Shown one piece after another: positions 5,109 to 26,535 of a stretch of 48,818 nucleotides of DNA (position 1 is its first letter; each line of letters begins with the position of its first letter). Made by a program: the position numbers and the translations under genes. Below the pieces are notes generated by a model. That model was given only the letters and a program-made list of their open reading frames with translations, made no database searches and was not told where the DNA came from. Where the stretch lies: assembly GCA_900770145.1 (NCBI GenBank), contig CAAGJL010000030.1:1-48818 (forward strand), in the 5' to 3' direction. This stretch comes from Clostridia bacterium. GTDB lineage: Bacteria > Bacillota > Clostridia > Oscillospirales > CAG-272.

Positions 5109-5117
5109 CATACAGTA
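5109..5117 (+). promoter_or_regulatory. possible mother-cell sigma (sigma-E/sigma-K type) -10 element upstream of the ATPase gene
   Basis: CATACAGTA matches both CATACAnT (sigma-E) and CATAnnnTA (sigma-K) -10 consensus as I remember them. It lies 27 nt before ATG 5144. No convincing -35 (TTGATTC at 5084-5090 at best). Confidence 0.3.
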
Positions 5118-5143
5118 AAAGGAAGAAAAAGGAGGTACATTCC

Positions 5144-6052
5144 ATGACAAACGAAATCCACCGCCGGCGGGCGGGGTTGTCGCCGCGGCAGGTACAGGAG
5201 GCGCGCCGCGCGCACGGCGAAAACCGGTTCAGCGAGGCAAAGCGGCAGGGGTTCTGGCGGCATTTTCTTGCCAATCTCGGCGACCCTGTCATCAAAGTGT
5301 TGCTGGCGGCGCTTGCCGTCAACCTCCTGCTGCTTTTTCGCGGCAGGGACTGGTTTGAAACCGTCGGCATTGCGGTCTCCGTGTTTCTTGCCACTTTTAT
5401 CTCCACCCTCTCGGAATACGGAAGCGAGGCGGCGTTCAACCGACTTTGCGAGAGCTGCGGCACGGCGTTTTGCCGGGTGCGGCGCGGAAACGTGACCGAA
5501 ATCCCGGTCGCCGAAGTGGTGGTGGGCGACGTGGTTCTGCTTTCCCCCGGTGAGAAAATCCCCGCGGACGGGGTGCTTTTTGAAGGGAAACTGACGGTAG
5601 ATCAATCGGCGCTCACGGGCGAGAGCCGCGAGGCGGAAAAGTCCCCCTCCCCCGTGCGCGGCGCCCTCTCGCCCGACTCCCCTGCCGGGTTGTTTGCCGG
5701 GTGCACCGTGCTTTCCGGCGAGGGGGAAATGGAGGTCGCCCGCGTGGGGGACGCCACCATGCTTGGCGGCATTTCGGGCGAACTGCAACAGGCGACCGGC
5801 GACAGCCCGCTCAAGCGGCGCCTCTCGAAACTGGCGAGGCAGATCAGCGTGGTGGGCTACCTCGCGGCGGGGCTGTGCGTGGCGGCATTCCTTTTTGACC
5901 GCCTGTTTATCGACTGCGGCTTTTCGGGCGCGGTGCTGCTCTCGCGCGTGCGCGATTTTCCTTTTCTCGCCTCGCTCCTCTTAAACGCCCTCACGCTGGG
6001 ACTGACCGTCGTGGTCATGGCTGTCCCCGAGGGCAATGTGCTGTTAGTATAA
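5144..6052 (+). pseudogene. P-type (IIA, Ca2+-type) cation ATPase, N-terminal fragment truncated by prophage insertion
   Basis: ATG 5144 with AAAAAGGAGG RBS. Cation-ATPase N-terminus (GLSPRQVQEARRAHGENRF) and TGES actuator motif. The host-derived frame ends ...VVVMAVPEG at 6030, then reads 5 phage-derived codons (NVLLV) to TAA 6050-6052. Confidence 0.9.
6016..6051. other. attL (host half-site CATGGCTGTCCCC, core GA at 6029-6030, phage half-site GGGCAATGTGCTGTTAGTATA)
   Basis: CCCCGAGGG is shared with attR. The phage arm ends in GTTAGTATA, the exact inverted copy of TATACTAAC at 44820-44828. Confidence 0.8.
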
Positions 6053-8859: not shown

Positions 8860-11268
8860 TCAGGAAATCTCCGCCCGCGTTTTGCCGGCGAAGGTGTTTT
8901 CGTATTTTTTGATCAGTGTTTTCTGCACGCTTGCCCTGACCGCCTGTTCTGCCGCCTCCAGTTCTTCCGCAAGACCGCGCAGCCGCTCCCGCAGGTCGTT
9001 GACGGCGTCTCTTGCCGCCTGCCGCGCGACCCTGGTGTCGGCGTATTCCTCCTCGGTGAGAAGACCCTCGGCAAGTTTTGCGGTCTGATAATCCGTGCTG
9101 TCAAGATACTGTTGCCGCTCGGCAAGCATCGTGTCAAGAAGCGCACGCTCTTTGCGCAACTCCCGCGTGGCTTCCTCGTATTCCCTGCTGAATCGCCAGT
9201 TGCGGCGGTGCATCCCCTCTGCCCACGCGCGCTTGAAATAGTTCCGGTCGCCTTCGGTCAGCCCGTTCCAGTATTCCGCGTATTCCGGCGCGGTCAGGCG
9301 CGGGTAAAAGAGTTCCACCTTATCGCCGACCTGAATGCCCCCGGCAAGATACCGCCCCTTGAACGTCATCAGGGTATAGTGCCGCACCGGGGCGGCGGGC
9401 ACAATCTCCTCACTGCCAGTATAAGTGACAATATCGCCTGTTGCCGTGCACACCCGACTCTCTCCCGGCACCAGCTGCGTCCAGTTAATCAGCTGGTCGC
9501 GGTCGATCTCCCAGAAAAACTGGTTGCCGAACACGTCCACGGTTTTCCCGTCCGAAAAGGACAAACGATGGTACTTGTCGCATTCGCCGACCACCGGGGG
9601 CACGACGGCGCGGGTCTGCGTGAGTCTGCCTTTGGCGGGCGACCAGAACGCCAGATAATCCCCTGCCTGCACGTCCTCGATGTTTTTCTCGGTGATCTCG
9701 CCGGTGTCCTTATTGCGCAGCAAGACAGGTGTCCCCTCGATGAAGCAGGTGACTGTTTGCCGGCTGAAATGGCGCACCGGAATCACGGAGCAGACGACGC
9801 TTTCATAGGAACCGGGCGACACGTAACCGGTCACGGTCACAGTGCCATCGGCGTTGTTGCGGACACCGGCATAGTTCAGATTTCCGCCGTAATCATATGG
9901 GGCGGTGTTTGCCACCATCTGCCCGTTGTGCAACACGTAGGTCACAAGGTTGTTGCCGGTATAGGTACTGGCGTCAAACCGGATCAGGTACGTCCGGTCT
10001 CCGCGCACGGTGGCGACCTCGGCGGAGCCCTCTCCGCCGTTGCCGGAGGTGTTGGTGAAAACAACCGCGTCCGCTTTTGCCGCGTCCACCGTCCGTCGGT
10101 TGGCAATCCCGAGGTCATCCGTCGGGTCTTGCATCCGGCAGCTGCCGTCCGCCTCACGGCAAAGTACCGTGTTGCCGCCCGTTCCGGAACCGGAAGCCGG
10201 CAGCGTCGTCTGTCCGCCTTCGGGGGTCACGGCGTAGACCCGCCTGTCCCCGGCGGAGGTCACTTTCCCCAGCGCGCCGATGCTCTCGGCGGTGATGCTC
10301 TCCGCGCCGGCGCCGGGGTCTCCTTTTTCCCCTTTTTCGCCCTTGTCCCCTTTGTTGCCCTTTTCTCCTTTGATGCCGGCGGCGCCGGAAAGATCGGTCA
10401 CAAATCCAAAGCCGTAATCGTTTCTCACATACAGTTTGGCGTTGTCCTCGTCCTCCACAGAGGAACTGATCATCACCATTTTGCCGTAAGGCACATTCTC
10501 CGCGTCGGCATTCATCTGCCCCACGGAAGGGTAGGTTTTGAACACGGCAAACGGATCGCCCTTCTCCCCCTTTTCCCCGGTGGCGCCGTCACTCCCGTTG
10601 GTCACGGTAAAGGTTTTGGCCTGCCCATCGGTCAGGGTCACGGTATAGGTGTCGGTTTTGCCCTCGGTGGCGGTTTTGACGATGTTGGCAATCCCGGTGC
10701 CGGTGGCGCCGGTAGCACCGGTAAGACCGGTATCGCCCCGCTCGCCCTTTTCCCCTCGGTCGCCCTTCAGCGTCCCCGCGCGGAAAGCGGAAAAAACCGT
10801 GTTCATAGTGCCCGCCACGTTTTCCAGATCCTGCACGCGTTTGGTCAGGTCGTTGCAGCCGTTGTATGCCTCTACCAGCGCATCAAACTCCGACGTGGAC
10901 TCCAGATCGATATCGTGGATGACCGCTTCCCGCACGCAGACCGAGAAAACAGGGGCGGAAACAGCACCTGCGGCGTTGGTAACCGTCAGCTGGCAGTCAA
11001 ACGTGCCCACTGCGGCGGTGGCGTTGCCTGACAGGTAATAGGTAATTGTGCCGTCGTTGTTGATGGTGCAGCTGCTCACCAGTTCCGTGCCGTCCGGCTT
11101 CACGGCGGACAGCAGGCAGGAACAATCCTTCGTGACCCGATAGGGCTTTCCGTCCTCGGTCAGTACAAAAATAATCGTTCGCAGGGAATCCCCCCGGTTG
11201 AATTGCAACAGAGTCTGCGAGCCTTTGTTGTGCATGTCCAGCAACACTCTGTATTCCACGTTGTTCAT
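8860..11268 (-). CDS. tail fibre / receptor-binding protein with BppU-like N-terminus, three collagen-like Gly-X-Y runs and a Hint (intein-like) domain
   Basis: ATG 11268 with AAGGAGA RBS. Gly-X-Y runs at 10693-10764, 10552-10587 and 10306-10377. CFIEGTPVLL... starts at Cys codon 9745-9747 and the domain runs to about 9322, followed by a coiled-coil C-terminus. The + strand ORF 8818-11031 is antisense. Confidence 0.8.
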   Translation of the reverse strand: MNNVEYRVLLDMHNKGSQTLLQFNRGDSLRTIIFVLTEDGKPYRVTKDCSCLLSAVKPDGTELVSSCTINNDGTITYYLSGNATAAVGTFDCQLTVTNAAGAVSAPVFSVCVREAVIHDIDLESTSEFDALVEAYNGCNDLTKRVQDLENVAGTMNTVFSAFRAGTLKGDRGEKGERGDTGLTGATGATGTGIANIVKTATEGKTDTYTVTLTDGQAKTFTVTNGSDGATGEKGEKGDPFAVFKTYPSVGQMNADAENVPYGKMVMISSSVEDEDNAKLYVRNDYGFGFVTDLSGAAGIKGEKGNKGDKGEKGEKGDPGAGAESITAESIGALGKVTSAGDRRVYAVTPEGGQTTLPASGSGTGGNTVLCREADGSCRMQDPTDDLGIANRRTVDAAKADAVVFTNTSGNGGEGSAEVATVRGDRTYLIRFDASTYTGNNLVTYVLHNGQMVANTAPYDYGGNLNYAGVRNNADGTVTVTGYVSPGSYESVVCSVIPVRHFSRQTVTCFIEGTPVLLRNKDTGEITEKNIEDVQAGDYLAFWSPAKGRLTQTRAVVPPVVGECDKYHRLSFSDGKTVDVFGNQFFWEIDRDQLINWTQLVPGESRVCTATGDIVTYTGSEEIVPAAPVRHYTLMTFKGRYLAGGIQVGDKVELFYPRLTAPEYAEYWNGLTEGDRNYFKRAWAEGMHRRNWRFSREYEEATRELRKERALLDTMLAERQQYLDSTDYQTAKLAEGLLTEEEYADTRVARQAARDAVNDLRERLRGLAEELEAAEQAVRASVQKTLIKKYENTFAGKTRAEIS

Positions 11269-11319
11269 GCCGAAAATATCTCCTTTTTTCTTCCATCTTA
11301 CCACGCGGACAGGCGGTTA

Positions 11320-11355: not shown

Positions 11356-14300
11356 TCAGGCCGCCCCGATGAGTTTTTGAACGATCGGACGCAGATCCCG
11401 CTCGATATTCCGGAACGGAATCCCGAAAAACGCGGAGACCGCGCCGATAATAGCCGTCACCTTCTGATAAGCGGATTTCGTGCCGCTGTCTATGGATTTC
11501 AGCGCACTGACCAGATCCTCAAACAAATCCATGTCCATCCGGGAAACATCGTACCCCTGGCACAGGGAAACAATATCTTTTGCAAACGGGATATACGTCA
11601 GCGGATTGAAATTGTCCAGAAAATCCTCCAGGGCAGCTTTCCCGTATTTCTCGGCATAGGTCTCGTCATCATCGTCCCCGATGTGCCGCCATGCCACGAC
11701 AACCGCTTTGAGCAGAGAGTTCAACACGATGGAGGCCGTCACCGCCCCGACCGCGCCCGATATGATTTTTGCGCCCTGCTTTCCGCCGATTCTCTTACCC
11801 CTCACAAAAGCGTCCGCCACCATGTTCATCGTGGTGGTGGGTTCCGCCATGAATGCGGTTGCCATCTTCATCCCGGTGTCTTTGCTTCTCATCAGTCCGC
11901 TTCTCGACAGCACGGAATCGTACACCTGCGTCAGGGTGATAACCTGCGTGAATTTCCTGCCCGCCTCGGTGAGCAATGCCTCCCCCGAAAGGTCGGTCGT
12001 GTCCGCCACAAGCGCCTTTGTCGCGTTCCAGATGTAGCACCACGTCAACTCGTCCGCCATGGACGGAGCCTTGGAAAGCACCTCGTCCCGATAACTGCCG
12101 TCCTTCAGGAACGCCGCGATCTTGTTCCGGAGCCCCTCGGGTGCTTCTGCTTTCAGCCAATCAACGGAACCTTTGCCCATACCGGTGTCAAAATACCCCA
12201 TCTCCTTGATGCCCGCCACCGGCGCATATTTCTTGCACTCCTCCCAGACGGCGCGATGCTGACGGAAGTTAAATGCCTGCGCAAAGGTTTTGGCAAAGTA
12301 TTTGGGGCTGATGTACGCCATTGCCCGGCAAATGGCTGAGGGCTGCTGAATCGTGACCGAAGCGGAGGCAAACACCGCGCCCTTTTTGGCAAGCGACATC
12401 AGTTTGCCGATCTCTTCCGCCCCGCTTTGCCGCGCGCCGCCGTTCAGATCGGTCAGAAGGGTGCTGATATACTCGTTGACCCCCGTTCCGTATGCGTTCT
12501 GCAACGCCTGTTTGACCGAGGAGGTCTCCGCCTTGTCGTCGGTTTCCGTTTTGTAGTTCCATACCCGGTTGAAGTCCTCCAACGGGAGAACGAACGAATG
12601 GTACATCGCCATGTCGTTGCAGTGCCCTGCCCATACGTCCATAAAGTTGCTAAGGATGATCGGGTTGTTTGCGTGCGCCACGGTCGCTTTGGAAAACCCG
12701 GAGTTTCTGATCCGCACCTCGCCCGCCACCTCGTTCTGCTGATACAGAAACTGCCGTGCGGACTTCAGCGGGAAGTATGTTTTCTCCTTGAAAAGTTTCA
12801 CGCCGTACAGGGCCAGGGACACCTCGTTGCCCTTTTCCCCCATCACCTCCGAAAGGTACGCCTGCATCTCGTCCGCAAACGCCCGCTGTTCCGGAGAGAG
12901 CGTGCCGCAGATTTCGGCAATCACCTCTTCGGAAAGATTGAAAGCGGTTGCCGTGTTGACCCGGTATTTCACGGGCACGCCGTATTTCTTTTCGGTGACT
13001 TCGATTGCGCCGTCAAACACAATGCCGCCCTTTGTCAGGTGTTCTGTCGCCTGCGGGCGCTTGGCATACGCGTAAAGGGACAGAATCTGCTCCAGCGTCA
13101 TCTCAAAGGTTTTTCCGCTTTTGGCGGTGAACCGATACCGCTTCCCGAAGTCCCAGCCGGAATACCCGTGCTTTTTGTACTGCTCCTCCCTGAATGCCTT
13201 TGCGGCAGACATATCGCGGTACCAGGCGTCCTCGCCGCTTCGCACGTTTTCATACAGTTCGGTAAAGGTATCCGAGCCGATCATGCGCATCGCGTAAACC
13301 GGCTTTAAGGACTTCCAGCCGAATTTTTTCAGCCACCGCAGGGCGGCAACCTCCCTTGCGTGGTCTCCCCCGGTGGCCCGCACCTGCCCCCGCACGGCTT
13401 CCCCCAGTTGCGTGATGGTTTCCGCCTTGTTTGTAAGAAAGACTTTGTTTGCATTCCGGACGGAAGTGAGGATCATCCGGTACATCCCGTACACCTCTTC
13501 CAACTGTTCCAGGGTCATATCCCGGATGGAGGTATCGCCCACCTTGCCGATGACGTCGTCAATCTTGTTTTCAATGACCTCATCGTGGGCATTTGCAATC
13601 AGCGGGTCATCGGAGTTGATGATGTCCGCATACGCGGTTTTCAGCCGTTCCAGTCTGCCCTTCAGGGTTTCGCCCTGTTCCGCAATCCGGTCGCGCGTTG
13701 CCTGAAGCTCCCTCACCACATCCGGGTCGGTCTCCTTTGCAATCAGTGCGTCGTATTTCGCCACCCGCGCATCCGCGCCGACGGTGTCCATATTGACCGC
13801 GTCCAGCGCTTCTGCCACGATTTTTTGCATGCCGATCAGAATCTTGTTTTCTTTGAGGTAAGCGTTCAGCTCCCCGACCACCTTTTTGACCTTGCCCCGC
13901 ATTTCGGTTTTGTTTCTGCCCTCTGCGGCTTTTCTGCGCGACTCCTGATTTTTCTGCACAATGTCACTTACGGTCTCGGCGGTTTTCTTCTTGTAGGCGT
14001 TCAAAGCCTCCCTGTAGCGCGCCGCCTCTGCCTTCTGCACCCTGGCGGATTCCCGAGACAGGACGTTTCTCAGCGGTGCAGACGCCTCCAGGTTGAAGAG
14101 TTGCCGGTCATAGTTGCTGATTCGGCGCTCCAGTTCCGTGGCGGTTTTCTGAAGTCTGCCAATCTGTTCCGTATCCCGCGCTCCTTTGGAAAAAGACAAT
14201 TCCCGGATTTTTGCCCTGGTGGCGGTCAACTGCTTTTCCGATTGCTCCATCAGGCCGATTTTGGTTTTGTACTGCCGCAGTTTTTCTTTTTCCGTTTCGT

Positions 14301-17300
14301 TCTGCGCCACGCTCTCCAGCGCGTTTGCCAGCAGTGAGCGGGCGGAAACGTTCTCCCGGTCGGAAAACAGGGCGCTCTCGCCCAGCACCCCGCCGGGTCG
14401 TTCCGTGTAGCCATAATGCCGCAGCGCGTCCTCCGGTAAAATATCCGGAAAATACCTGTTGACAAATTCGAGAAGCTCTGCTATACTGATAGTGGAACGG
14501 TAATCCGGGTGAAAGACCGGAGGCGCATCGAGCGCAGCCGTTCCTTTTTGTTTTGCATTGATGGAATACAAAACATCCATAGACAGCAGTTCGTTGCTGA
14601 AACGGTTGACCACGGATTCCACAATCTGCACACTTCCACCCTCGCGACCGGCAACGCCGATGAGCACATAACATGCGCTTGCTTTTTCGTTTTTTGGTAC
14701 CAGTTCGTTGATGACGACAGAATTTGCAAGAATTTCGCCCGCATTCACCGTGACCGGGGCGTTTTGCGAAAACCGCCTGTCAAGGCTATGGATAAGCCCC
14801 GCCTTGGAAAGAATAACATCCGCGCCTGCATCTTTCACATAGACCGAAACGCTCCCGTCCTTTGCGTTGAATTTTCCGATTTTTGCGGCATTCTTCCGCG
14901 CCAATGCCACCACATCCGCGCGGTTTGCGGGCGCGGTGTCGCCCAATACCGTCACCTTCATATCCGGTTTGGATATCAGTTCCTCATAAGAATATCCCGT
15001 TTTCTTATTTTCTGCAGTTTCACGGGTGGATTGCTTCACGGAATCCTTAGTGACGATTGCGGAAACTTTTCCGAACATATCTGTACTCTCAACGGTGAAT
15101 CCGTCCCCCAGTGCATCTCTCAGATAACCTACCAGTTCAGACCGTGTAAAGCCTTTCTGGTAACTGCCGGTGTTTGAAATATACACCTCAAGGTTGCCTT
15201 TGCTTATGATTTCTTTGGTAGAAGCGTTCAGCACATCGTCTCCGCGCACATTGATGAACATCGTACCACCTGGATTGAGCATTTCTCCCATCTTTACAAC
15301 CAGTGCGTCCCGCTGGTCCTGCGGCAACACATTGAGAACCGCATTGCTGATGATGACATCATACGTTTTGTCCAACGCGGAATAGTCCGTGTATTTCGGC
15401 GAATAGTTTTTCCCGGGGTAAGGCTCAATATCTTCCACGTCAAAGCCAAACTCTTCAATCCCCGCTCTCGTCCCATACCCGAGCCCACTTGACGCATCAA
15501 GGATAGCACCGTGGAATCCCTTTTGCCTGAGATACCGGTAAATCTTCCGGTAAGAAGAAACCGTAACCTTTACCTGTGTGGGATTTCTCGTCTCGCTTTC
15601 CTCTGCCGAAACATCCCAAAGATGCGGAAACCGCTCTTTTGCTTCCGCAGTTGTCAGACTTCTTTCCCACGCGCCCGATTTTGGCTGAACAGGCTCTACT
15701 TCCCGCAAAGAATACCGGATGTCAGGAGACGAGGTAGGCTTTTTGTTGTCTGCGTTTTTGAATTGTTCCGAGGTAAAGGCAACATAAACGGTGGAATTTT
15801 CGTATTTTCCATCGACAATGTAGCCATCGTAGCCGAGAACCCGCTTCACCGTAAGCAGTACCGTTTCGGCTCCTGCACCGGAATTTGCAATATTCGCAAG
15901 AATTTCCGAATCGCTGTCACAGTATTCCATACACGATCTGACTGTATCGTCAAGCGCACGGGTATACCAGGTCTTTGAAGGATACCCCATTCCACCCGCA
16001 GAATCGTAATTGATAATCACGTCATCGCCGGTAGGGTCAATGGCTTGAATCAACCGTCTTACCTCGACAGGGGTGAGCGTTATTTTGCTGTCGGACAAGG
16101 GCTTTTTAATGCTCAGATAGCCGTCAAGCAGTTGCCCGCCGTTTCTCTGATATCCCTCTGCCATATCCTTGTTCTGCGTGAAGTAGATACCTTGCCCCTC
16201 AGAAGAACCGTTTCTGCTCATAAACTGATAGGAGAACTCCGTAAACACCGCGGGGGAACCGTGATATACGCGCAGCAGGTTTCCGTTGGCGTCCACGACC
16301 TTTGTCCCATCGAAGTATTCCCGTTGCTCATCGGAAAGTCGCTCCCCCTCGCTGTCGGTCTCGCGCAGAGAATACCGGACGCCGGAGGCTTCGGAATTCT
16401 CGGAAACCTTTTGCCGAACCCGCGAAGACCTGTCACTCACGGAACCACGGCCGGAGAAATCGGTATCCGATCTGATGATTTCATTTGTGATTCTTTCCAC
16501 GACCTTCGGCATGCTTTTTTTGAGCTCGGATTCCTTCGCCGTCTGCCCTTTCGCATAATCCTTCAGAAGCCCGGTGATATACGCGTTGTCAAAGATCGGC
16601 TTCACAGGCATCTGTGGGAGATATTCCCCGGTTTTTGTCTGTGCGAAGGTTTTGAAATCCACCAACAGCTTGTGATAGCCCTCGGTGTATACGTAGTTGC
16701 CGTTTTCATCCGTGTTGAGGAACTGCGCAAACCGGGGGGTCAGCCCGTTTTCCTTGCACACCTGAAGGAATTTTTCCACAAAAGTCCGCTTGGTGATGGG
16801 GGCACCTTCCTTTTCCAGAACCTGAAGCACCTCCGTATATATGTTGACCTGATGGCGGGATACCTTCCCCGTTCCGATGTCTTTTTCGGTTTGAAAATCC
16901 TTGTAGTTTTTCCATGCCGAAATGCCCTTTTCCTCCAGAACAAGCGTGCTTTGCCCGGTGTGAAACGGGATAATCTGGTCTATAAAATCGCTGACCATGG
17001 CGGCGCGGATCTGCAGGTCGTTGATGCCGATGGTAATGTTGCCGACGTTCGGGTTGTTCCTGTTGTCAAAGAAATCCTTGCTGTTGATGTCAATCCCCTC
17101 GACCGTGTCATAGTCGAGAACGACTTCATTCCCCTCAATGTGATACCCCAGGTCTCCTTTGGGAATCAGAGATCTGTTCAGTTTTTCCCCCGTGTCTTTT
17201 ACGGCTTTTGCATATTCGTTGACCTTTGTATACCCTTGCAGGGAAAGCCCTACCGCTGCGCTGTCCGTAATCACCTGAATGATGTCAATCAGGTGGAACA

Positions 17301-20300
17301 TCTCCGCGTCGGAAAACGAGTAAATCCGAAGGCCGCCCTTGTCGTTTTTGGACTTGACCGTGCCGGGGCTGTATCCGAGAATCTGACGCTTGTACTCTGC
17401 CTCATTTGCAAGAAGCCTTACAGATTGCATGCCTCTCGCATTATTGAACGCCACCCACGCGTCCGCAAGTCCCCGGTTCTTCTTTTTCAGGGAGTTCAGC
17501 CCCTCCAGAGATACCAGCTCATATACGGACGGCGTGTAGTTTATCCCCTCTGCAAACCGGAAGCTCTCAATCTGCTGTTCGTTGAACGGTTTTCCGTCCG
17601 GTCTTGTTCTGCTTCCTTCCCGGTACAGCTTCAGGCTGTCAATAAAATTCTGCGCAACGATTGTATCCTGTTGCCGCCTGTCCTCTACATAACAGATGCC
17701 ACACGGTACCCGCATGCCCTCATCCTGCATGATTGTCCGGATTTTTGCGAGGTCTGTCGATTTGAAAACGTGGTCAGGGAACAGCCTCAGCACATTGTTC
17801 ATGACCGCGGTAAACTCCCGTCTTTTGGCGCAGATAGGGGAAAAGTCCACGGTACCCTGCGGGTAATCTTTGTTCGCCTTGATTGCCGTTTCGTCAGGGT
17901 CTGCCTCATAATCCGGATACCCGGAATACTTAGGGTTGAGAATAAGACTCGCAAGAGATGTTTCTGCGGTCAGCCACTGATGTGCTTCCGCTTTTGTGAC
18001 GCCCAATCTGTCCGCAAGCGCGATGGCGACTTTTTCTTTTTTCTCTTCGTCGAGAACGTCGCGCACGGAATAAAGGGAAGCAGAATCCGTTTCCGCATCA
18101 ACGTGAATCCCGCTTTCGGAGAGGGTTTCCTCCGCGCGCACCGCCTCGCTCTGATAACTTTTCACCGTATCCGCCATGGCATCCGCAAATGCGTCGCGGA
18201 TGGCGGTGACGCGGTTGATGGTATCCACGGCAACCTCCCCGAGGGTGCTGTTGGACCTCTGCCCCCGGTAGTCGCCCCGCAACCGGTCGATGATCTTCTG
18301 AAAGAAGTCCACGATTTTCTGAAGGAGCGTCCTGTCCGCCTTTGCCACCCGCGCGGAAAACCGTTCCAACACGTCCGTATCCGTGAAAATCTTTTCGGAG
18401 CATTTTGCCACCACTTCGGAGTACGCAATCTCTTTTTGCTTCGCGTCGCCAAGGCCCTTGTACTCGTCCATGCCGCGCATCCGCGCCTGTTCTGCTTCCA
18501 ACATTTTTGTCACGGATTTGTTGTCGTTCCCAAGCTCCTCGAAAAGCAGATCCGCATATTTCCGGAACAGCTCCGGGCTCTTTTGCTCCATCTCATGCAC
18601 AAACTCATGCGTAAGGGTGTAGGCAACCAGCCCCTCTCCGCGCGCCCCGGAATTTAAGTCAATATGAATGCTCCCGTCCGCGCCGAGGTAATACCCGTTT
18701 GCTGTCCCGTTCTGCCTCCCGCTTGCGGTGGATTCATATACGTAGATGTCCGCGCCGAGTTTTGAGAGCACCTTTGCCAGGGAAAGCCCGCTTTTTTGCA
18801 ACTTGTTGAGATTCCGATTCCTGACCTCCGGCACTTTGCCGTCCGTAATCCGGTATTCCCCGGGATACGCGGTTGTGCTTTTTGCGGCGGTCTTTGTAAG
18901 GTTTGCCGTTTTGTCGGCGGTCTTTGCCGCAGGGGCTGCCGCCTTGCCGGCAGTCTCCCGCACCGCGTCAATCTTCCCGAGATTGTACGCGGTTTTTCTT
19001 TGCGCTTCCGCCAGCCCGGCGGTAAATGTCCCCTCGCCGAGAGCATTGTAATTTACGCTCTTTTTGCCGTACCAATAAGCGTCCCGGAGCCCAAGGGCAA
19101 CCGAAATCAGCCCCCCGCTGTCCGTGCCGGAGGCAACCCCCAGCAGCTTGTTTGCAGTTTCTGCGCTCACGCCGAGGTCGGCGATGACGGAATACAGCAC
19201 CGCCTCCCCTTTGGTGCCGAAACTCAGATCAGAGGCGGAAACGGTCTCCCCGTTTTGCAGTTTCAGCGTCAGTTTTCCCCCGTCGGTGGACGCCACCGCG
19301 TCCGTGGCGGCAATCGTTACGGCTTCCCCGGTATCGTTGCGGACGGTTCTGCCGCCGTCGGCAGTATCAAACCGCCCGGTCAGCGTTCCGGCTTCGGTTT
19401 CGGCTGCTGCCTGCGCGACACCGCGCTGCACGTACTCCTGAACGATTTTTTGTTTCGCCCTCGCATGGCGCTCCTCCCGCTGCCCGATTTCCGAATCCGC
19501 ATTCCGGATTACTTTGTCATAAACCGCCTTCACGGAAGGGCCTTTCAGCATCTTTTGCAGGTCGATTTCTTCCCCGTTGTACTCCTGAAGCAGTTTTTCC
19601 GCGATTTTCCCGGATTTCTTTTTTGCCGTTTTTTCCTCCACGCCGTCGCTCACCATCTGCTCAACCAGCGCGTTTTCAATACTCCTGAGGTTGTTTTGGT
19701 TTCTCGCCTCGTTTACCCGCTGATTCAGGATGCCAACGTTCATCGCCGTGGGCTTTTTTACGACATTCTCCGCATAACGGGAAAGCGTGTCGTTGCCCCC
19801 GTACTCGTTTGCGGTTTCCACCGCAAGATTCCGGAGTGCCTCTGTACCTCCCATCTCCCGGATGGATTTCCCGTTCCGGTACAGATCGGCATCCTGCAGG
19901 GTGTTCCCGATGACCGCGCCCGGGGCGTTCATCATCGCTGCGGACAGAGCGCCGAGCGTAAAACTGTACGCCTGCTCTTCCAGCGTTGACCACTCCCATT
20001 CCCCGGTCATGGTGCCTTTGATAATCGTGGAGCCGATGTCCTGAATGACCTCTTCAAGACCCTCTGTGGAGGCGTCAACAACGCCGTCAAACACTTTCAT
20101 CAGGGCTCTTGTAAACCCGCTGGCGGAGGATTTCAGCCCGCTGACCAGTTTCGTTTTGTTCAGCAGTTTGGAGGCGTGTTTTCCGCCAAGCCCCTCAATG
20201 GAGCCGAGGTAATACTCCGACGCGCCTTCCCATACGCCAAGCGCCACAGACAGCGCCCTTGCCTGCCCCTTGCTCATTCCGCTGTTCAGGAACTCCCGGT

Positions 20301-21390
20301 AGTAGTTGCCCCCGGCGGAAAATCCCATCAGCGACGTACCGAGTACAGACCCCGCCGTGCCGCCGGTCATGGCGGACACCATGATTGAGGGGAGCATATT
20401 TGCCACCGTGGTTACGGTATCATACGCAATCTGCCCCGTGGAGTTTCCGAGAAACTGCCCGCCAACGTCCCCCAGATCCTCCCGCACGTATTGGGAGGCA
20501 TAGTCCATCAGCGACGGCGCGATGTACCCGTCACCGGTGCGGAACATATTCTGAACGCCGCCGGCAAACTGGTTCAGCCCGGCGGCGACTCCGAACACAA
20601 GCTGAAGCCCCATGTTTCCGTCCGCCCTGTCCGCCACTTTTCCGGCTTCCCGTTGATTCAGCACGTCGTCCATCGCATCAAGATAAGCCTTTGCCGTGCC
20701 CTTTGCCACGCTTCCCTCGTTTTCCTTGGCAAGCCAGTAGTTGTACACGGACACCTCGTCGTCGGTGAAATTGGAATATCGGTAGTCACCGACCGGCTTC
20801 TGGTCATACGACATTCTGATGGTATCGTTGTTATCACGTGAGAACGTTACAATGTTCCCTATTTCTTTGGCTCCCGTGCGATGACCGAAAATGTAAAACT
20901 TTCCGTCTGCTTCCTCAAACGTAGGGTTCTGAATTGCCGCGCCGATTCCGGCGTATTTTCCAAAGTCCTCCGCGCCGGTTGCCCGGTCGTAAAGGTCTTT
21001 GCCAAGCTGCGTTTTTTTGTAGAAATCCTCATATGCGGCGTCCGAAGCAAAAGAGGAGACGTATTGATCATAACTGTCCACCCCCTCCTGCAGTTTCTTC
21101 AGGTTTTCCAGGTAGTTTCTTGCATCCTCGTTTGATTGGTTATAAACCTTGGAATATTTTCCGACGAAATCATCCAGCCGCGTCTTGTACGAGCGGATGG
21201 TACCCCTGTCAATATAACCGCCTTTTTCAAGGGTTCCCAAAATGTCGGAAAGATCGGTGGTAGCAACCTCGGCACGTGTGCGCGCCAGATAGTCGGAAAG
21301 GGTGGTTTCGCCCTTTTGTTCTCTTTTTTTCCGGGCAAGATACCCGTCAAGCGTTTCTCCGCTTTTTTGAAGATATTCCGTGAGCGTCAT
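11356..21390 (-). CDS. giant multi-domain virion protein (polyvalent-protein type; 3344 aa)
   Basis: ATG 21390 with AAGGAG 7 nt upstream (the track start at 21408 is a TTG). Gly/Ala-rich hydrophobic region at about 20190-20616. HEFVH zincin motif at 18595-18609. YHGS...GQGIYFT ADP-ribosyltransferase-like region at about 15750-16350. Class I SAM methyltransferase motifs (ILDASSGLGYG, YDVIISNAVLNVL, LNPGGTMFINV) at about 15200-15560. Long coiled coil. Hydrophobic helices near the C-terminus. Confidence 0.9.
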   Translation of the reverse strand: MTLTEYLQKSGETLDGYLARKKREQKGETTLSDYLARTRAEVATTDLSDILGTLEKGGYIDRGTIRSYKTRLDDFVGKYSKVYNQSNEDARNYLENLKKLQEGVDSYDQYVSSFASDAAYEDFYKKTQLGKDLYDRATGAEDFGKYAGIGAAIQNPTFEEADGKFYIFGHRTGAKEIGNIVTFSRDNNDTIRMSYDQKPVGDYRYSNFTDDEVSVYNYWLAKENEGSVAKGTAKAYLDAMDDVLNQREAGKVADRADGNMGLQLVFGVAAGLNQFAGGVQNMFRTGDGYIAPSLMDYASQYVREDLGDVGGQFLGNSTGQIAYDTVTTVANMLPSIMVSAMTGGTAGSVLGTSLMGFSAGGNYYREFLNSGMSKGQARALSVALGVWEGASEYYLGSIEGLGGKHASKLLNKTKLVSGLKSSASGFTRALMKVFDGVVDASTEGLEEVIQDIGSTIIKGTMTGEWEWSTLEEQAYSFTLGALSAAMMNAPGAVIGNTLQDADLYRNGKSIREMGGTEALRNLAVETANEYGGNDTLSRYAENVVKKPTAMNVGILNQRVNEARNQNNLRSIENALVEQMVSDGVEEKTAKKKSGKIAEKLLQEYNGEEIDLQKMLKGPSVKAVYDKVIRNADSEIGQREERHARAKQKIVQEYVQRGVAQAAAETEAGTLTGRFDTADGGRTVRNDTGEAVTIAATDAVASTDGGKLTLKLQNGETVSASDLSFGTKGEAVLYSVIADLGVSAETANKLLGVASGTDSGGLISVALGLRDAYWYGKKSVNYNALGEGTFTAGLAEAQRKTAYNLGKIDAVRETAGKAAAPAAKTADKTANLTKTAAKSTTAYPGEYRITDGKVPEVRNRNLNKLQKSGLSLAKVLSKLGADIYVYESTASGRQNGTANGYYLGADGSIHIDLNSGARGEGLVAYTLTHEFVHEMEQKSPELFRKYADLLFEELGNDNKSVTKMLEAEQARMRGMDEYKGLGDAKQKEIAYSEVVAKCSEKIFTDTDVLERFSARVAKADRTLLQKIVDFFQKIIDRLRGDYRGQRSNSTLGEVAVDTINRVTAIRDAFADAMADTVKSYQSEAVRAEETLSESGIHVDAETDSASLYSVRDVLDEEKKEKVAIALADRLGVTKAEAHQWLTAETSLASLILNPKYSGYPDYEADPDETAIKANKDYPQGTVDFSPICAKRREFTAVMNNVLRLFPDHVFKSTDLAKIRTIMQDEGMRVPCGICYVEDRRQQDTIVAQNFIDSLKLYREGSRTRPDGKPFNEQQIESFRFAEGINYTPSVYELVSLEGLNSLKKKNRGLADAWVAFNNARGMQSVRLLANEAEYKRQILGYSPGTVKSKNDKGGLRIYSFSDAEMFHLIDIIQVITDSAAVGLSLQGYTKVNEYAKAVKDTGEKLNRSLIPKGDLGYHIEGNEVVLDYDTVEGIDINSKDFFDNRNNPNVGNITIGINDLQIRAAMVSDFIDQIIPFHTGQSTLVLEEKGISAWKNYKDFQTEKDIGTGKVSRHQVNIYTEVLQVLEKEGAPITKRTFVEKFLQVCKENGLTPRFAQFLNTDENGNYVYTEGYHKLLVDFKTFAQTKTGEYLPQMPVKPIFDNAYITGLLKDYAKGQTAKESELKKSMPKVVERITNEIIRSDTDFSGRGSVSDRSSRVRQKVSENSEASGVRYSLRETDSEGERLSDEQREYFDGTKVVDANGNLLRVYHGSPAVFTEFSYQFMSRNGSSEGQGIYFTQNKDMAEGYQRNGGQLLDGYLSIKKPLSDSKITLTPVEVRRLIQAIDPTGDDVIINYDSAGGMGYPSKTWYTRALDDTVRSCMEYCDSDSEILANIANSGAGAETVLLTVKRVLGYDGYIVDGKYENSTVYVAFTSEQFKNADNKKPTSSPDIRYSLREVEPVQPKSGAWERSLTTAEAKERFPHLWDVSAEESETRNPTQVKVTVSSYRKIYRYLRQKGFHGAILDASSGLGYGTRAGIEEFGFDVEDIEPYPGKNYSPKYTDYSALDKTYDVIISNAVLNVLPQDQRDALVVKMGEMLNPGGTMFINVRGDDVLNASTKEIISKGNLEVYISNTGSYQKGFTRSELVGYLRDALGDGFTVESTDMFGKVSAIVTKDSVKQSTRETAENKKTGYSYEELISKPDMKVTVLGDTAPANRADVVALARKNAAKIGKFNAKDGSVSVYVKDAGADVILSKAGLIHSLDRRFSQNAPVTVNAGEILANSVVINELVPKNEKASACYVLIGVAGREGGSVQIVESVVNRFSNELLSMDVLYSINAKQKGTAALDAPPVFHPDYRSTISIAELLEFVNRYFPDILPEDALRHYGYTERPGGVLGESALFSDRENVSARSLLANALESVAQNETEKEKLRQYKTKIGLMEQSEKQLTATRAKIRELSFSKGARDTEQIGRLQKTATELERRISNYDRQLFNLEASAPLRNVLSRESARVQKAEAARYREALNAYKKKTAETVSDIVQKNQESRRKAAEGRNKTEMRGKVKKVVGELNAYLKENKILIGMQKIVAEALDAVNMDTVGADARVAKYDALIAKETDPDVVRELQATRDRIAEQGETLKGRLERLKTAYADIINSDDPLIANAHDEVIENKIDDVIGKVGDTSIRDMTLEQLEEVYGMYRMILTSVRNANKVFLTNKAETITQLGEAVRGQVRATGGDHAREVAALRWLKKFGWKSLKPVYAMRMIGSDTFTELYENVRSGEDAWYRDMSAAKAFREEQYKKHGYSGWDFGKRYRFTAKSGKTFEMTLEQILSLYAYAKRPQATEHLTKGGIVFDGAIEVTEKKYGVPVKYRVNTATAFNLSEEVIAEICGTLSPEQRAFADEMQAYLSEVMGEKGNEVSLALYGVKLFKEKTYFPLKSARQFLYQQNEVAGEVRIRNSGFSKATVAHANNPIILSNFMDVWAGHCNDMAMYHSFVLPLEDFNRVWNYKTETDDKAETSSVKQALQNAYGTGVNEYISTLLTDLNGGARQSGAEEIGKLMSLAKKGAVFASASVTIQQPSAICRAMAYISPKYFAKTFAQAFNFRQHRAVWEECKKYAPVAGIKEMGYFDTGMGKGSVDWLKAEAPEGLRNKIAAFLKDGSYRDEVLSKAPSMADELTWCYIWNATKALVADTTDLSGEALLTEAGRKFTQVITLTQVYDSVLSRSGLMRSKDTGMKMATAFMAEPTTTMNMVADAFVRGKRIGGKQGAKIISGAVGAVTASIVLNSLLKAVVVAWRHIGDDDDETYAEKYGKAALEDFLDNFNPLTYIPFAKDIVSLCQGYDVSRMDMDLFEDLVSALKSIDSGTKSAYQKVTAIIGAVSAFFGIPFRNIERDLRPIVQKLIGAA

Positions 21391-21408
21391 ATCTGAACTC
21401 CTTTCCAA

Positions 21409-22416
21409 TCAGTCCTTATACAGGGAATCCATCAGGTTTTTATACCCCTTTGTTTCTCCGATGCCGAAAAGGCCGTTTGTCGCTCCCACTTTGTAATACT
21501 TTCCGCCGCTCCGATAGTACAACTGGCCGTTTCGGTTGATAAGATCCCCGTCATTTTCGCTGGCGGCGGCCAATTTGGACTTGAGGGTTTCATCGGTCAC
21601 TTCTCCCTTGTTTTCAACCGTGTGCCCGTTGATCTTGAAATTATCTCCTTTTCGGGGTTTGCGCGCAAATCCTGTCACGGTTTGGGCACCATACGAAACA
21701 GCACCGGTGGTTTGGGCAACCTTCTGCCCGTCAATGCCTGTTATTTCTCCATCTTCATTCGTTTGTACTTTGTCCGGATCAATCATTCCGGCTATTCTCG
21801 TTTCCAGCCCGGCAATCCTCTCATCCTGGTCACTGTTGAATTTCGCCAGTGCGCGGTTATATTCGTCGGAATACCGGCCGTAATCGTAGGCCTGCTCGTT
21901 TTGAACGGCGCCGGTGATGTAGTCCCGGTCGGCGTTCCACTGCGCCATGGCGTCCTGCCGTTCTCCGTAACCGGTGTCGTACTTGTCCTTTTCCATCCCA
22001 TACGCATTCAAAAGGTCGGCGCCCTCCTGGTTGTACTTATCCAATGCCAGCTGATACAGCTCCGGCACTTTGTCATTCAGACCCTGCAAATACCCCTGAT
22101 AGGTCTGCTGCCCCACGGTCTGTGCATACGAGTTCCCGTACCCGCCGGTCATCGCCGAGGCCTGCCCCATCACGTCCATCATCGCCTGTTTGCCCTGGTT
22201 GACATATTGATCCTTGTATTGGTTGTACAGCGCGTCCGTATTGATGTCATAGGAGAATTTGCCTCTGTTTTTGTATGCGTCAAGCGCCAGCTGCACCGGC
22301 GCATAATTTTTTTCCCTGTCCCAATCGGCAGGTCTGGAACCGAGGACTCTGTTTTGCTCCTCTTCCAGATTCAGCAGTCTTTGTCCTTTTTTATACGGGT
22401 CGTAAGTAAACGCCAT
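21409..22416 (-). CDS. virion-associated protein (candidate internal/ejection protein by position)
   Basis: 335 aa, Q/N/Y/D-rich. ATG overlaps the upstream stop (TAATG). Its stop abuts the giant gene. Confidence 0.75.
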   Translation of the reverse strand: MAFTYDPYKKGQRLLNLEEEQNRVLGSRPADWDREKNYAPVQLALDAYKNRGKFSYDINTDALYNQYKDQYVNQGKQAMMDVMGQASAMTGGYGNSYAQTVGQQTYQGYLQGLNDKVPELYQLALDKYNQEGADLLNAYGMEKDKYDTGYGERQDAMAQWNADRDYITGAVQNEQAYDYGRYSDEYNRALAKFNSDQDERIAGLETRIAGMIDPDKVQTNEDGEITGIDGQKVAQTTGAVSYGAQTVTGFARKPRKGDNFKINGHTVENKGEVTDETLKSKLAAASENDGDLINRNGQLYYRSGGKYYKVGATNGLFGIGETKGYKNLMDSLYKD

Positions 22417-22655: not shown

Positions 22656-24398
22656 TTATTCCACCGCGGTCAGAATGCCGTTTGTAAAGGTCAGTGTTTT
22701 ATTGGTGCCGGACATTGAAAACGTATTGGAAAAGTTTGCCCCGTTCACGATCTTTTGGACAGCCTCGCAGACATCGTACCAATCCACAAGAATCCTTACA
22801 CCGTCCCGATACCCTTCCAGCCCGTATCTCCGGATTGCCACTCCCGTGCCGTTTTCCACGCGGTAAATTCCCTCGCCCGGAGAAAAATTGAACCCGCCGA
22901 TAAAGGCTTTGCCGTTCGGGCGGACATAGAAAACCGGGGTTTCGTTTTCCTTCACAAGCAGACTGGTGGAATGCTCAATCCACGCAGCAGTGGTGGTTCC
23001 CACGGTTTTGTTCAGGCTGGAATCAAATGAAACTTCATATTCGGTGGCGTCGGCCGTAAAAGTTTTGCGCAACCGCTCCGGGCTGATTTGCCACCCCCCG
23101 ATCTCCCCGGAGGTGGCTTTCATCTCTCCGGCGTGCCCGACGCGGAACGGGGCGTTCAGCCCGGTATCGCTCCCTGCCCAAAAGGCACAATCCGTTTCAT
23201 CAGATCCTGCAACCGGCGCCCCGCACATTCCGACCTTTTGACCCTTCAGCAGATCCCCGGTGATTTCAAACCCGGCAATCTTCCCGGTGGTGGCGGTGAT
23301 TTTGCCGGTGACCTCCGCCCCGGCAGCAGTCACATCCATCACGGCCGCTCCGTTGGATTTCAGCAGAAAGCCGTTCTCCGTCAGCGACCAGGAAAAAGAG
23401 GAGGCGTTGCCGCCCGTGGTGCTGACCTTTGCGGTAATCGCCGCGGCATTCTCCTCCGCCTTGGCGGAGATGAATGCGATGGACGACACATCATCCTCCA
23501 CTCCGGATTTCCAGGCGGACAGGGCGGAAAGCCCCTCCGTATTTGCCGTAATCCTGGCGGAGAGCGATTCTTCGATCTTTGCGGGGTCGTTCTCCTCGCC
23601 CCAGATGATGTCCCCCGTCAGCCGGATGCTGCCGCTGAGCGTGGCGTTGCCGGCGGCGTCCACCAGAAACCGGTTGCCGATGTTGATCGTGCCGCCCGTG
23701 ATGTCCCCGGTGATTTTTGCGCCGTAGGCGGTCAGCGTGCCGCTGGGAAAGTACACCTGAGTCGGGGTGATGTGGGCAAGCTCCGTGTTATTGCCCCAAA
23801 AGGAAATTTTGCCGGGGGTAAAGGTGGCGGCAAGGTTGCCCCGGTCGATCACCCGGTGTCCGTCCGCGTCCGTGGTGGCGGTCAGAAGCCCCACGCCGAC
23901 CCCGTATACCGGCTGTGAGTCCTCCTCATACAAAAGCCCGGTTTTGATGTAGGACTGATTTGCCACGTCAAAATCCCCGTAGTCCGAGCGGATGTTGGAG
24001 GTATAGGAATACAACTGGGTGATGCCGGCGGAGTTGGCGTCAAGCGCCATATCGGTCTTTTCCCGATAGGTGCCAAACTCGGATTTTGCCACAAAACTGC
24101 CGCCAAGTTGCAGTTTGACCTCCTCATACAACGACTCGGTAAAGTCCGCGGACTTGATGATCATGGATTTGATCGTGCTGTAACTCTTTTCCAGTTTTTC
24201 CGCCTCTGTGAGCGCGGCGTCGTCCCCCCCGGGGTCTGACCGCAGGGAGGCCCCATAGGCGCCACCCGCCGGGGATTCTATCTCGTTTAACGAGAAATTC
24301 AGCTGTTCGGTCAGCTGATAGATGTATCTGGTCAGCTGCGTAATCTTTTCGGTATCGGTTTTCCCGGTGATGTTCGGCAGGCGCAGGTTTGTGCTCAC
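22656..24398 (-). CDS. tail spike/fibre-like structural protein
   Basis: 580 aa. GTG start in a GTGA overlap with the upstream stop. Repeated TGKIAGFEITGDLL / SGEIGGWQISPERL motifs are typical of Firmicute phage tail proteins, from memory. Confidence 0.75.
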   Translation of the reverse strand: MSTNLRLPNITGKTDTEKITQLTRYIYQLTEQLNFSLNEIESPAGGAYGASLRSDPGGDDAALTEAEKLEKSYSTIKSMIIKSADFTESLYEEVKLQLGGSFVAKSEFGTYREKTDMALDANSAGITQLYSYTSNIRSDYGDFDVANQSYIKTGLLYEEDSQPVYGVGVGLLTATTDADGHRVIDRGNLAATFTPGKISFWGNNTELAHITPTQVYFPSGTLTAYGAKITGDITGGTINIGNRFLVDAAGNATLSGSIRLTGDIIWGEENDPAKIEESLSARITANTEGLSALSAWKSGVEDDVSSIAFISAKAEENAAAITAKVSTTGGNASSFSWSLTENGFLLKSNGAAVMDVTAAGAEVTGKITATTGKIAGFEITGDLLKGQKVGMCGAPVAGSDETDCAFWAGSDTGLNAPFRVGHAGEMKATSGEIGGWQISPERLRKTFTADATEYEVSFDSSLNKTVGTTTAAWIEHSTSLLVKENETPVFYVRPNGKAFIGGFNFSPGEGIYRVENGTGVAIRRYGLEGYRDGVRILVDWYDVCEAVQKIVNGANFSNTFSMSGTNKTLTFTNGILTAVE

Positions 24399-26155: not shown

Positions 26156-26166
26156 CGGTTTGCCTT

Positions 26167-26535
26167 TCAGAAAAATTGCAACCGGGTGCCTTTTGGCGTG
26201 TGGCTGCGGTGATAGTGCCCCGCAAACTCCGCATACGCGGCGTTGAAGGCGGCGGCGCTGTTGTTGTATTTGGCGTACTCGTTGTTTGCAAAGTCGATCT
26301 GCGCCTCCAACCACCGCAGATACAGGTCGTCATAGGGTGCCGGCGCCAGCAGCACGGCACCGGTGGCGACCTCGTCATACCCGGCAAACGCCGCGCCGTC
26401 CCCGCCCTCATGCGCGTTGATGATTTCCGCCGTGATTCTGCCGTCCAGGCGGGAAAGCCAGCGGATTTTCTGCGCTTGCGAGTAGTTGTTCGGTTTGATG
26501 TTGTCCAGTTCGGTAATGGCTTCCAGAACGGTCAT
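26167..26535 (-). CDS. hypothetical head/neck-associated protein
   Basis: 122 aa, between the capsid and tail genes. Adaptor role inferred from position only. Confidence 0.65.
   Translation of the reverse strand: MTVLEAITELDNIKPNNYSQAQKIRWLSRLDGRITAEIINAHEGGDGAAFAGYDEVATGAVLLAPAPYDDLYLRWLEAQIDFANNEYAKYNNSAAAFNAAYAEFAGHYHRSHTPKGTRLQFF

Follow-up and report, generated by a model that had tools for sequence, protein, structure and literature searches.

A giant protein of a gut Clostridia prophage with conserved ends and an exchangeable enzymatic middle: a probable phage polyvalent protein

The window analysed here, the whole 48,818-nt stretch of contig CAAGJL010000030.1 from a Clostridia bacterium (assembly GCA_900770145.1), holds a prophage of ~38.8 kb in which a single minus-strand gene encodes a protein of 3,344 amino acids (aa), called the giant protein below. 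The giant protein is very probably a polyvalent protein, a member of the class of phage and conjugative-element proteins described by Iyer, Burroughs, Anand, de Souza and Aravind in 2017 (PMC5512222). The reading that we favour, and hold to be probable, is that of a genuine single-gene phage polyvalent protein with constant scaffolds at both ends and swappable enzyme cargo between them, which would be packaged in the virion and ejected with the DNA. The packaging and ejection step, taken by itself and argued by analogy, we would call rather likely. The coordinates of the modules and of the neighbouring genes are collected in Table 1.

The division into constant ends and an exchangeable middle is seen when the giant protein is compared with its homologues by BLAST. 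In three relatives (L001, L002 and L006) residues 46-1113 and 2133-3343 are retained at 52-66% identity, and the middle is replaced by a segment carrying MuF_C, ART, LPD3 or PBECR3. Across the homologues, an N-terminal scaffold of ~1,100 aa and a C-terminal scaffold of ~1,000-1,200 aa are kept while the middle is swapped, and the cargo found in the same slot comprises MuF_C, PBECR1/3, LPD3, LPD23 and Kinase-PolyVal. Among 144 further giant proteins (median length 3,577 aa) from a library of representatives at 50% identity, the C-terminal module is BLAST-detectable in 70-90, the zincin region in 77 and the long-helix region in 43; the methyltransferase module is detectable in only three and the module that we call M7 in six. 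A comparison of homologues for domain shuffling, suggested by the first-pass annotation of this DNA, thus finds modules that move as units between constant ends.

The module borders carry a recurrent short motif (junctions 1 to 5 in Table 1). S-x-R-[DE] occurs eight times in the giant protein, compared with 1.76 +/- 1.33 times in shuffled sequences, and five of the eight copies fall at independently mapped module borders. The strict form [YF]S[LVIM]R[DE] is found 28 times in 156 giants where 3.5 are expected (~8-fold), and the motif is present at ~35% of ART borders compared with 4% of windows drawn at random. The residues before junction 2 are predicted by AlphaFold2 to be disordered, the ARTs of homologues are often followed by a ...P[DE][IM]R[YF]SxR[DE] linker that is the same as at junction 3, and the degenerate junction 4 coincides with the starts of BLAST high-scoring segment pairs (aa 2112-2133) in L002, L003, L006 and L009. 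The motif also trails the zincin module in distant homologues, at the end of alignment A3. Searches with the junction peptide strings returned nothing relevant in the literature covered, and the word 'linker' is absent from the main text of PMC5512222.

The firmest piece of cargo is the ADP-ribosyltransferase (ART), where the first-pass annotation had noticed a resemblance and called for a Pfam search. The match to PF18760 scores 81.9 bits, well above the cut-off of 31.2 (E=1e-22), and the catalytic triad is conserved in the aligned homologues, with H in 43 of 43, Y, F or W in 42 of 43 and D in 33 of 34. An H-Y-D triad of this kind is described for the ART-PolyVal clade (PMC5512222), and at the level of profile and active-site residues the assignment of aa 1700-1886 to ART-PolyVal is confirmed.

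A class I S-adenosylmethionine (SAM)-dependent methyltransferase (MTase), also proposed in the first-pass annotation, is moderately supported at aa ~1940-2110 by its sequence motifs. These motifs stand, at aa 1963-2048, with motif I (LDAxSGxGxGT) and D93 invariant, and homologues of the module at 37-71% identity carry PF13489 or PF08242; the module's own profile scores, discussed below, stay under threshold. NCBIfam and PADLOC searches of the giant protein gave only weak MTase-type matches. The tetrapeptide motif (D/N/S)PP(Y/F) characterises DNA amino-methylases; it is not present in the MTase module, which therefore does not look like an enzyme of that type. The adjoining ~215-aa M7 has no Pfam or PHROG match and moves as a unit, occupying other positions in L002, L003, L009, P0104 and P0105 and preceding the ART in L002. 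We considered whether M7 is LPD3, given that its homologue in L002 has a weak LPD3 match (E=4e-4), and rejected this as unproven; in P0104, LPD3 (aa 342-447) and an M7-like region (aa 540-757) are separate.

The largest piece of cargo is a region of ~535 aa, the Cys module. The first-pass annotation had set it apart as a cysteine-containing region of about 500 aa that it could not assign, and the motifs that it quoted are where it put them; the region remains without annotation. A search of 1.84 billion cluster representatives returned 1,918 proteins at E<=1e-3, of which 616 reach E<=1e-30, and the carriers are almost all 2,000-6,000 aa long. In 131 sequences that are 39-81% identical to the present protein, 78 positions are at least 95% conserved; they include C1187, C1230 and C1233, many Arg and Lys residues, and Asp, Glu, Ser and His residues in the motifs GGLRxFSFSD, QGYTK, NRSLIP, VEGI and IIPFH. 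AlphaFold2 modelling of this region (33 sequences), a check that had likewise been proposed, gives a confident fold with a predicted local distance difference test score (pLDDT) of 86.3 and a predicted template-modelling score (pTM) of 0.83, in which strand and helix elements alternate through the conserved core. Foldseek comparison of the model with the PDB gave a best E of 0.67 and a query template-modelling (TM) score of at most 0.17, the weak top matches being mostly triosephosphate isomerase (TIM)-barrel enzymes. The present protein and six relatives gave no match to the module in Pfam, PHROGs, NCBIfam or PDB sequences, and nothing was found by tblastn in 50,697 phage records (INPHARED) or 72,556 plasmid records (PLSDB). 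The module occurs together with Kinase-PolyVal, ART-PolyVal, LPD3, PBECR1 and LPD23, and it moves as a unit, L007 holding a 47%-identical copy in a different protein. We read the Cys module as an uncatalogued enzymatic cargo domain. That the conserved cysteines form a metal or Fe-S site and that the Arg and Lys residues receive a phosphate-rich substrate is a guess from the pattern of conservation. Besides Clostridia, the module was seen at 46-49% identity on two contigs (L098 and L099) binned to Bacteroidales/Muribaculaceae, which may reflect either a module that crosses phyla or mis-binned phage contigs.

In the N-terminal scaffold, residues 46-1113 are 52-55% identical in L001, L002 and L006 and 20-26% identical in L003, L004, L007 and L010-L012, and this scaffold has no match in Pfam, PHROG, PDB (sequence profile) or INPHARED. 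The Gly/Ala-rich hydrophobic block reported earlier at about aa 258-400 is 18% Gly, and three charge-free stretches were found from its start to aa 499; G343, G356, S358, G371, G385 and E388 are nearly invariant in alignment A3, and these stretches are candidate membrane-active segments. The second part of the N-terminal scaffold contains the zincin motif. The string THEFVHE spans aa 927-933, and it is the HExxH within it that occupies the residues given in the first-pass annotation for the whole string (aa 928-932, nt 18595-18609); a third ligand, Glu992, is encoded at nt 18415-18417. H928, E929, H932 and E992 are invariant across ten homologues of 20-55% identity. An HEXXH...E pattern is described for the metallopeptidases of polyvalent proteins (PMC5512222), and a zincin-like metallopeptidase at aa ~850-1060 is supported by this arrangement of ligands. 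Judged by their conserved residues, both the ART and the zincin of the giant protein are catalytically plausible.

The C-terminal scaffold opens with the region described in the first-pass annotation as a coiled coil of about 230 aa, for which AlphaFold predicts continuous helices of 35, 30 and 76 residues within aa 2365-2513; the long helices hold, as predicted helices, and we call the region coiled-coil-like. The module that follows is PHROG 22978 ('unknown function', E=7e-281), has 108 homologues at 36-78% identity, and ends, as had been noted, in hydrophobic helices (the last two in Table 1). An AlphaFold2 model of aa 2345-3344 (50 sequences) is mostly helical, with a pLDDT of 75.4 and a pTM of 0.65. 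Its 60 neighbours in BFVD at E<=1e-3 are C-terminal pieces of giant phage proteins, and the best of these (TM 0.5-0.65, 20-42% identity) represent the final segments of giants from uncultured gut phages, named after their cargo as 'Nuclease', 'PolyVal ADP-ribosyltransferase' or 'Phage MuF C-terminal domain-containing protein'. More distant matches are to environmental Caudovirales and to a 'structural protein' of Tenacibaculum phage Gundel_1 (E=9e-12, TM 0.27). Because its structural neighbours are themselves the ends of giant phage proteins, the module appears from the model to be a widespread C-terminal anchor of phage polyvalent proteins. In six loci (L003, L004, L005, L009, L007 and L010) the reading frame runs 700-1,150 nt (~240-385 aa) past the C-terminal match, and the C-terminus can evidently gain modules.

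Taken together, the giant protein joins several unrelated domains (an ART-PolyVal, an invariant zincin motif, an MTase-like module and two further globular modules) and is encoded by a 38.8-kb prophage among packaging and late genes, between the capsid/tail genes and the fibre. The earlier description of a multi-enzyme polyvalent protein is borne out to this extent: the ART is firmly assigned, a zincin and an MTase are plausible assignments, and the same slot holds polyvalent cargo in homologues. Like the proteins of the Iyer class, it assembles unrelated enzymatic domains in one giant polypeptide among late virion genes and shows both the H-Y-D of ART-PolyVal and an HExxH...E; in contrast to them, no Pfam LPD or MPTase-PolyVal model matches any part of it, its scaffolds, Cys domain and junction motif included.

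The position of the gene has implications for how the protein might be used. Lysis genes come after the tail fibre in minus-strand order, and the block g639-g580-g335-giant-fibre is kept in L001-L010. No tail-tube, sheath, terminator or (frameshifted) chaperone gene lies between the capsid and fibre genes, and only ~540 nt separate the capsid gene from g639, which has no sequence homologue in the PDB. The prophage gene set looks like that of a complete temperate phage (serine recombinase, Sak, terminase, portal, capsid and lysis genes), and from the portal type and the lack of tail genes we consider it probably a short-tailed temperate phage of gut Clostridia. The first-pass annotation had placed the giant protein in the slot that T7-type phages reserve for ejected internal core proteins. 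With respect to gene order (capsid, g639, g580, g335, giant, fibre) this placement stands; PDB sequence and Foldseek searches found no similarity to solved ejection proteins.

Several described systems bear on this comparison. T7 gp14/gp15/gp16 and P22 gp7/gp20/gp16 likewise occupy a slot between tail or internal-virion genes and the fibre, and have hydrophobic helix-rich regions that could span the envelope; in contrast to them, the giant protein is one polypeptide rather than three, carries enzymes that would act in the cytoplasm, has no lytic transglycosylase Pfam domain and matches none of them in PDB sequence or Foldseek searches, so that it is analogous by position alone. A closer parallel is gp47 of phi24B (2,807-2,811 aa, vb_24B_48), a giant polyvalent protein of a short-tailed temperate Shiga toxin phage, which was found in virions by proteomics, is absent from the external reconstruction and has been proposed to be a capsid-packaged ejection protein (bioRxiv 10.64898/2026.04.10.717836). 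It has the MuF_C cargo seen in relatives of the present protein, but differs in its LPD5, LPD1 and LPD38 modules, its Gram-negative host and the place of its gene, which lies at the genome end and not before the fibre. The N4 virion RNA polymerase-type proteins and P1 DarB/DdrB are also very large, packaged in virions and injected, with an MPTase domain and sometimes an ART (PMC5512222); their RNA polymerase, SNF2 helicase and DNA amino-methylase modules are not detected in the giant protein. Finally, the Clostridium clostridioforme LM41 prophages phi1 and phi4 contain 8-kb open reading frames (ORFs) for hypothetical proteins that take up ~20% of the prophage and have limited similarity to LPD3 of 'Podoviridae sp.' (PMC11318856), and are thus alike by description in their giant share of a gut Clostridia prophage and in their LPD3-like similarity.

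In the light of the phi24B and C. clostridioforme precedents, and of relatives that are abundant in public metagenomes and in BFVD, the earlier suggestion that the domain combination looks undescribed was overstated. What was not found in the databases and papers searched is narrower: the Cys domain, M7, a function for either scaffold and the junction motif. Few phage proteins are as poorly understood as the giant polyvalent ones, and this one belongs to an unstudied group of gut phages. With fixed scaffolds, a swappable middle and marked junctions, the cargo slot is easy to locate in relatives and offers a route to new effector domains; the Cys module, widespread, confidently folded, enzyme-like and unrecognised by the sequence and structure databases searched, is a well-defined target for biochemical work. 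How a protein of more than 3,000 aa is arranged inside a capsid and put to use during ejection is a question posed by the phi24B study (bioRxiv 10.64898/2026.04.10.717836), and if the giant protein is indeed packaged, its family would provide a Gram-positive counterpart for that question.

We suggest the following sequence of events. The scaffolds would direct the giant protein into the capsid or the portal channel and, at infection, would help to build or line a conduit across the envelope, with the Gly-rich and terminal hydrophobic helices taking part in membrane crossing. The cargo enzymes would then enter the cell with the DNA and modify host targets by ADP-ribosylation or methylation, so that defences are blunted or the cell is taken over. 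Because the zincin belongs to the constant scaffold, its role may be a core one, either self-processing at the junctions or the cutting of cell-wall peptides. The [YF]-S-x-R-[DE] linkers might be cut by the protein's own zincin or by a head protease, releasing the modules; the 137-aa PHROG 4478 ORF next to the portal gene may be a head-maturation protease and hence an alternative enzyme for any such processing. MARTX toxins provide the analogy, being giant carriers with a string of effectors in which an in-built protease releases modules at inter-module sites. The analogy extends to the proposed processing only: MARTX toxins use a cysteine protease domain rather than a zincin, and secretion rather than phage ejection. 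We regard processing of the giant protein at the junction motif as possible but not likely. A bolder proposal is that the Cys module is a new family of enzymes with a three-Cys metal or Fe-S site and perhaps a novel or highly divergent beta/alpha-barrel fold, injected by thousands of uncultured phages and acting on a nucleotide or nucleic-acid target, with the linkers as programmed cleavage sites in MARTX-like 'effector strings' cut by the zincin or by a head protease; this is speculative, and as a whole we think it rather doubtful.

A number of observations weigh against a packaged, ejected and multi-enzyme protein. The argument for packaging and ejection is one of gene order and of precedents alone (phi24B gp47, N4 virion RNA polymerase, the P1 Dar proteins and the T7 slot). 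Both scaffolds are unlike any solved ejection protein, by C-terminal sequence and fold, by N-terminal sequence profile and by a PDB search with the whole protein; in particular, the C-terminal model has no significant Foldseek match in the PDB (best E=0.018, TM <=0.10), and the C-terminal profile matches no PDB sequence. Compared by hhalign, the C-terminal scaffold and the C-terminal half of phi24B gp47 gave a probability of 0.1%, and homology between them was rejected. Virion proteins of phages that infect Gram-positive hosts usually carry a peptidoglycan hydrolase domain, and none was found in the giant protein. The enzymatic assignments are uneven: the zincin module has no Pfam match at E<=1, MPTase-PolyVal (PF18818) included, and no PDB profile match, and the MTase module has partial Pfam matches below threshold (E ~0.02) and PDB profile matches that are all to class I SAM methyltransferases, at the sub-threshold E of 0.09-0.8. 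The junction motif could be a structural cap or a recombination-friendly constant linker rather than a cleavage site. Lastly, the phage belongs to a lineage without a cultured relative, and its morphology is read from its genes alone.

The giant protein might instead belong to the outside of the tail, as a central fibre, as a tail-tip lysin or in a host-adhesion complex, and its enzymes might act at the surface or be vestigial. The giant gene lies directly upstream of the tail fibre, the weak top fold matches of the Cys module are glycosidase-like TIM-barrel enzymes, and the phi24B preprint proposes a cell-wall peptidase role for that phage's own metallopeptidase, a role that the constant zincin might share. 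The ART, which depends on NAD+, and the SAM-MTase need cytoplasmic cofactors, however; the RNase-type cargo of homologues (MuF_C, PBECR) acts intracellularly too, and no receptor-binding, beta-helix or known lysin domain was found in the giant protein. We consider an external location unlikely.

The exchange of cassettes behind a conserved junction motif on a constant scaffold also recalls polymorphic toxins, and the ART and RNase cargo is of kinds typical of toxins (PMC5512222); the prophage or a derived particle might deliver toxic enzymes to competitors in the manner of MuF-toxin systems. In the giant protein and its homologues, however, the variable cargo is internal rather than C-terminal, the gene is followed by the tail fibre and lysis genes and not by an array of immunity genes, and the element looks like a complete temperate phage. 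Nor is this a toxin carrier of the MuF (SPP1 gp7) type: there is no N-terminal Phage_Mu_F match, and relatives carry only the MuF_C cargo. Such a weapon seems to us quite improbable.

The Gly-rich hydrophobic segments and very long helices, together with BFVD relatives automatically labelled 'Siphoviridae sp.' or 'Myoviridae sp.', would be compatible with a long-tailed phage whose tape-measure-type protein has picked up enzymatic domains. Tape measures set tail length at 1.5 A per residue; for 3,344 aa this comes to ~500 nm, an implausible length for a tail. More than half of the protein consists of globular enzyme-like domains, the portal is of the P22/SU10 type, and the major tail, sheath, terminator and frameshifted chaperone genes are missing from a region in which capsid gene and g639 are so close. 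A tape measure is thus very improbable.

That sequencing or assembly errors erased stop codons and so ran several genes together into an artefactual giant ORF is scarcely credible in view of ten independent loci with one ORF and hundreds of representatives of 3,000-4,000 aa, one metagenomic relative (L001), in which the gene is split into two overlapping ORFs, being the odd one out against the intact L006. We return, then, to a single-gene polyvalent protein, for which the gene itself is well defined. Translation from the first ATG (21390) gives 3,344 codons and a stop with zero internal stops, as the first-pass annotation had reported in claiming an uninterrupted 10,035-nt ORF; the gene makes up 25.9% of the ~38.8-kb element, in line with its 'about a quarter', and is tightly coupled to its neighbours, as it also held, with gaps of 18 nt upstream and ~51 nt to the downstream tail-fibre gene. 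A ribosome-binding-site-like GGAAAGGAG lies 5' of this ATG at 21398-21406. The ORF lister places the start at a TTG at 21408 (11356..21408, minus strand), and the upstream gene ends with its stop codon at 21409-21411, ahead of either start.

The possibility of an error-fused ORF had been raised in the first-pass annotation as a way in which its reading could fail, and the relatives speak against it. Species-representative genomes scanned with the last 744 residues yielded 11 loci in gut Clostridia metagenome-assembled genomes (MAGs), and in ten of these a single ORF of 2,567-3,397 aa covers the matching region, the tenth (L012) ending at the locus edge with at least 2,255 aa; L008 has only a 1,678-aa stop-to-stop ORF. 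The split in L001 is best read as a local rearrangement or assembly problem and not as the ancestral state. L001 (5793-14104) and L006 (4073-12226) are 100% identical apart from 155 nt by which they differ at a 62-bp direct repeat inside the gene, and we rejected the split as evidence for two genes. Internal repeats in the giant genes seem prone to rearrangement or mis-assembly. Full-length giants were obtained only from the 50%-identity representative library; in the word-indexed homologue database the longest family member has 1,571 aa, that is, it holds fragments on short contigs and undercounts giants. In the tblastn search of the INPHARED records the N-terminal part, like the Cys module, had no match, and the C-terminal part matched a single 4.8-kb record that carries no annotation. 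Looking up the exact sequences of the giant protein and of a host gene returned no record. In gut metagenomes from humans and ruminants the lineage is common, and, save for a few unannotated fragments, it is absent from ~50,700 deposited phage genomes.

Table 1. Modules of the giant protein and genes of the prophage (window coordinates)
Feature	Position	Strand	Basis or remark
Whole giant gene	11356..21390	-	ORF and translation; syntenic single ORFs of 2,567-3,397 aa in L002-L011
Conserved N-terminal scaffold, aa 1-1100	18091..21390	-	sequence conservation in relatives
Gly-rich charge-free hydrophobic helices, aa 258-499	19894..20619	-	segments 258-283, 325-364, 473-499
Zincin-like metallopeptidase module, aa ~850-1060	18211..18843	-	HExxH and Glu992
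Junction motif 1, LYSVRD, aa 1106-1111	18058..18075	-	xSVR[DY] before Cys module in homologues
Cys module, aa 1112-1645	16456..18057	-	unannotated enzyme-like domain; C1187/C1230/C1233, predicted beta/alpha core
Junction motif 2, RYSLRE, aa 1672-1677	16360..16377	-	preceding aa 1644-1672 with pLDDT <50
ART-PolyVal ADP-ribosyltransferase, aa 1700-1886	15733..16293	-	Pfam PF18760; H1710, Y1736, D1855
Junction motif 3, RYSLRE, aa 1892-1897	15700..15717	-	within PTSSPDIRYSLRE
Class I SAM-methyltransferase-like module, aa ~1940-2110	15061..15573	-	motif I ILDASSGLGYG at aa 1963-1973
Junction motif 4 (degenerate), QSTRE, aa 2120-2124	15019..15033	-	BLAST segment-pair starts
Module M7 (unassigned), aa 2125-2340	14371..15018	-	mobile unit
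Junction motif 5, LFSDRE, aa 2341-2346	14353..14370	-	after M7
Long-helix (coiled-coil-like) region, aa 2347-2600	13591..14352	-	AlphaFold2 helices; start of conserved C-terminal scaffold
Conserved C-terminal module, aa 2601-3344	11359..13590	-	PHROG 22978, mostly alpha-helical
Terminal hydrophobic helix, aa 3203-3235	11686-11784	-	sequence
Terminal hydrophobic helix, aa 3305-3329	11404-11478	-	sequence
Large serine recombinase	43493-44812	+	adjoins right prophage end
Terminase large subunit	31610-33217	-	structural block
P22/SU10-type portal	29569-31632	-	structural block
137-aa ORF	29083-29496	-	PHROG 4478 'peptidase' (E=9e-15); between portal gene and 355-aa gene
355-aa protein	between 137-aa ORF and major capsid protein gene	-	gene order
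Major capsid protein	26854-27930	-	structural block
g639	24395-26314	-	PHROG 511 'internal virion protein'
g580	22656-24398	-	syntenic structural gene
g335	21409-22416	-	syntenic structural gene, directly upstream of giant gene
Tail fibre	8860-11304	-	BppU_N and collagen repeat; downstream of giant gene

An unoccupied insertion site on a related human-gut MAG contig of 'uncultured Clostridiales UMGS1122' (L014) confirms both ends of the prophage: on this contig, window positions 5078-6033 and 44837-48558 adjoin directly, at 93-96% identity. A 9-bp core, CCCCGAGGG, is duplicated at the two window junctions (6025-6033 and 44837-44845). The interrupted host gene encodes a P-type cation ATPase, of which the N-terminal part lies at 5018-6052 and the C-terminal part at 44853-46601, and it is intact in the related genome. 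Among deposited phage records, the closest are fragments from human faeces that carry no annotation, and Bacillus phage PK1, whose portal is 24% identical. Near the terminase gene, a 171-aa ORF on the minus strand (33840-34355) matches Methyltransf_11 weakly (E=1.4e-4; 22.9 bits, cut-off 21.2) and sits in a stretch of low GC content, ~0.45-0.49 at 33-36 kb compared with ~0.57 elsewhere.

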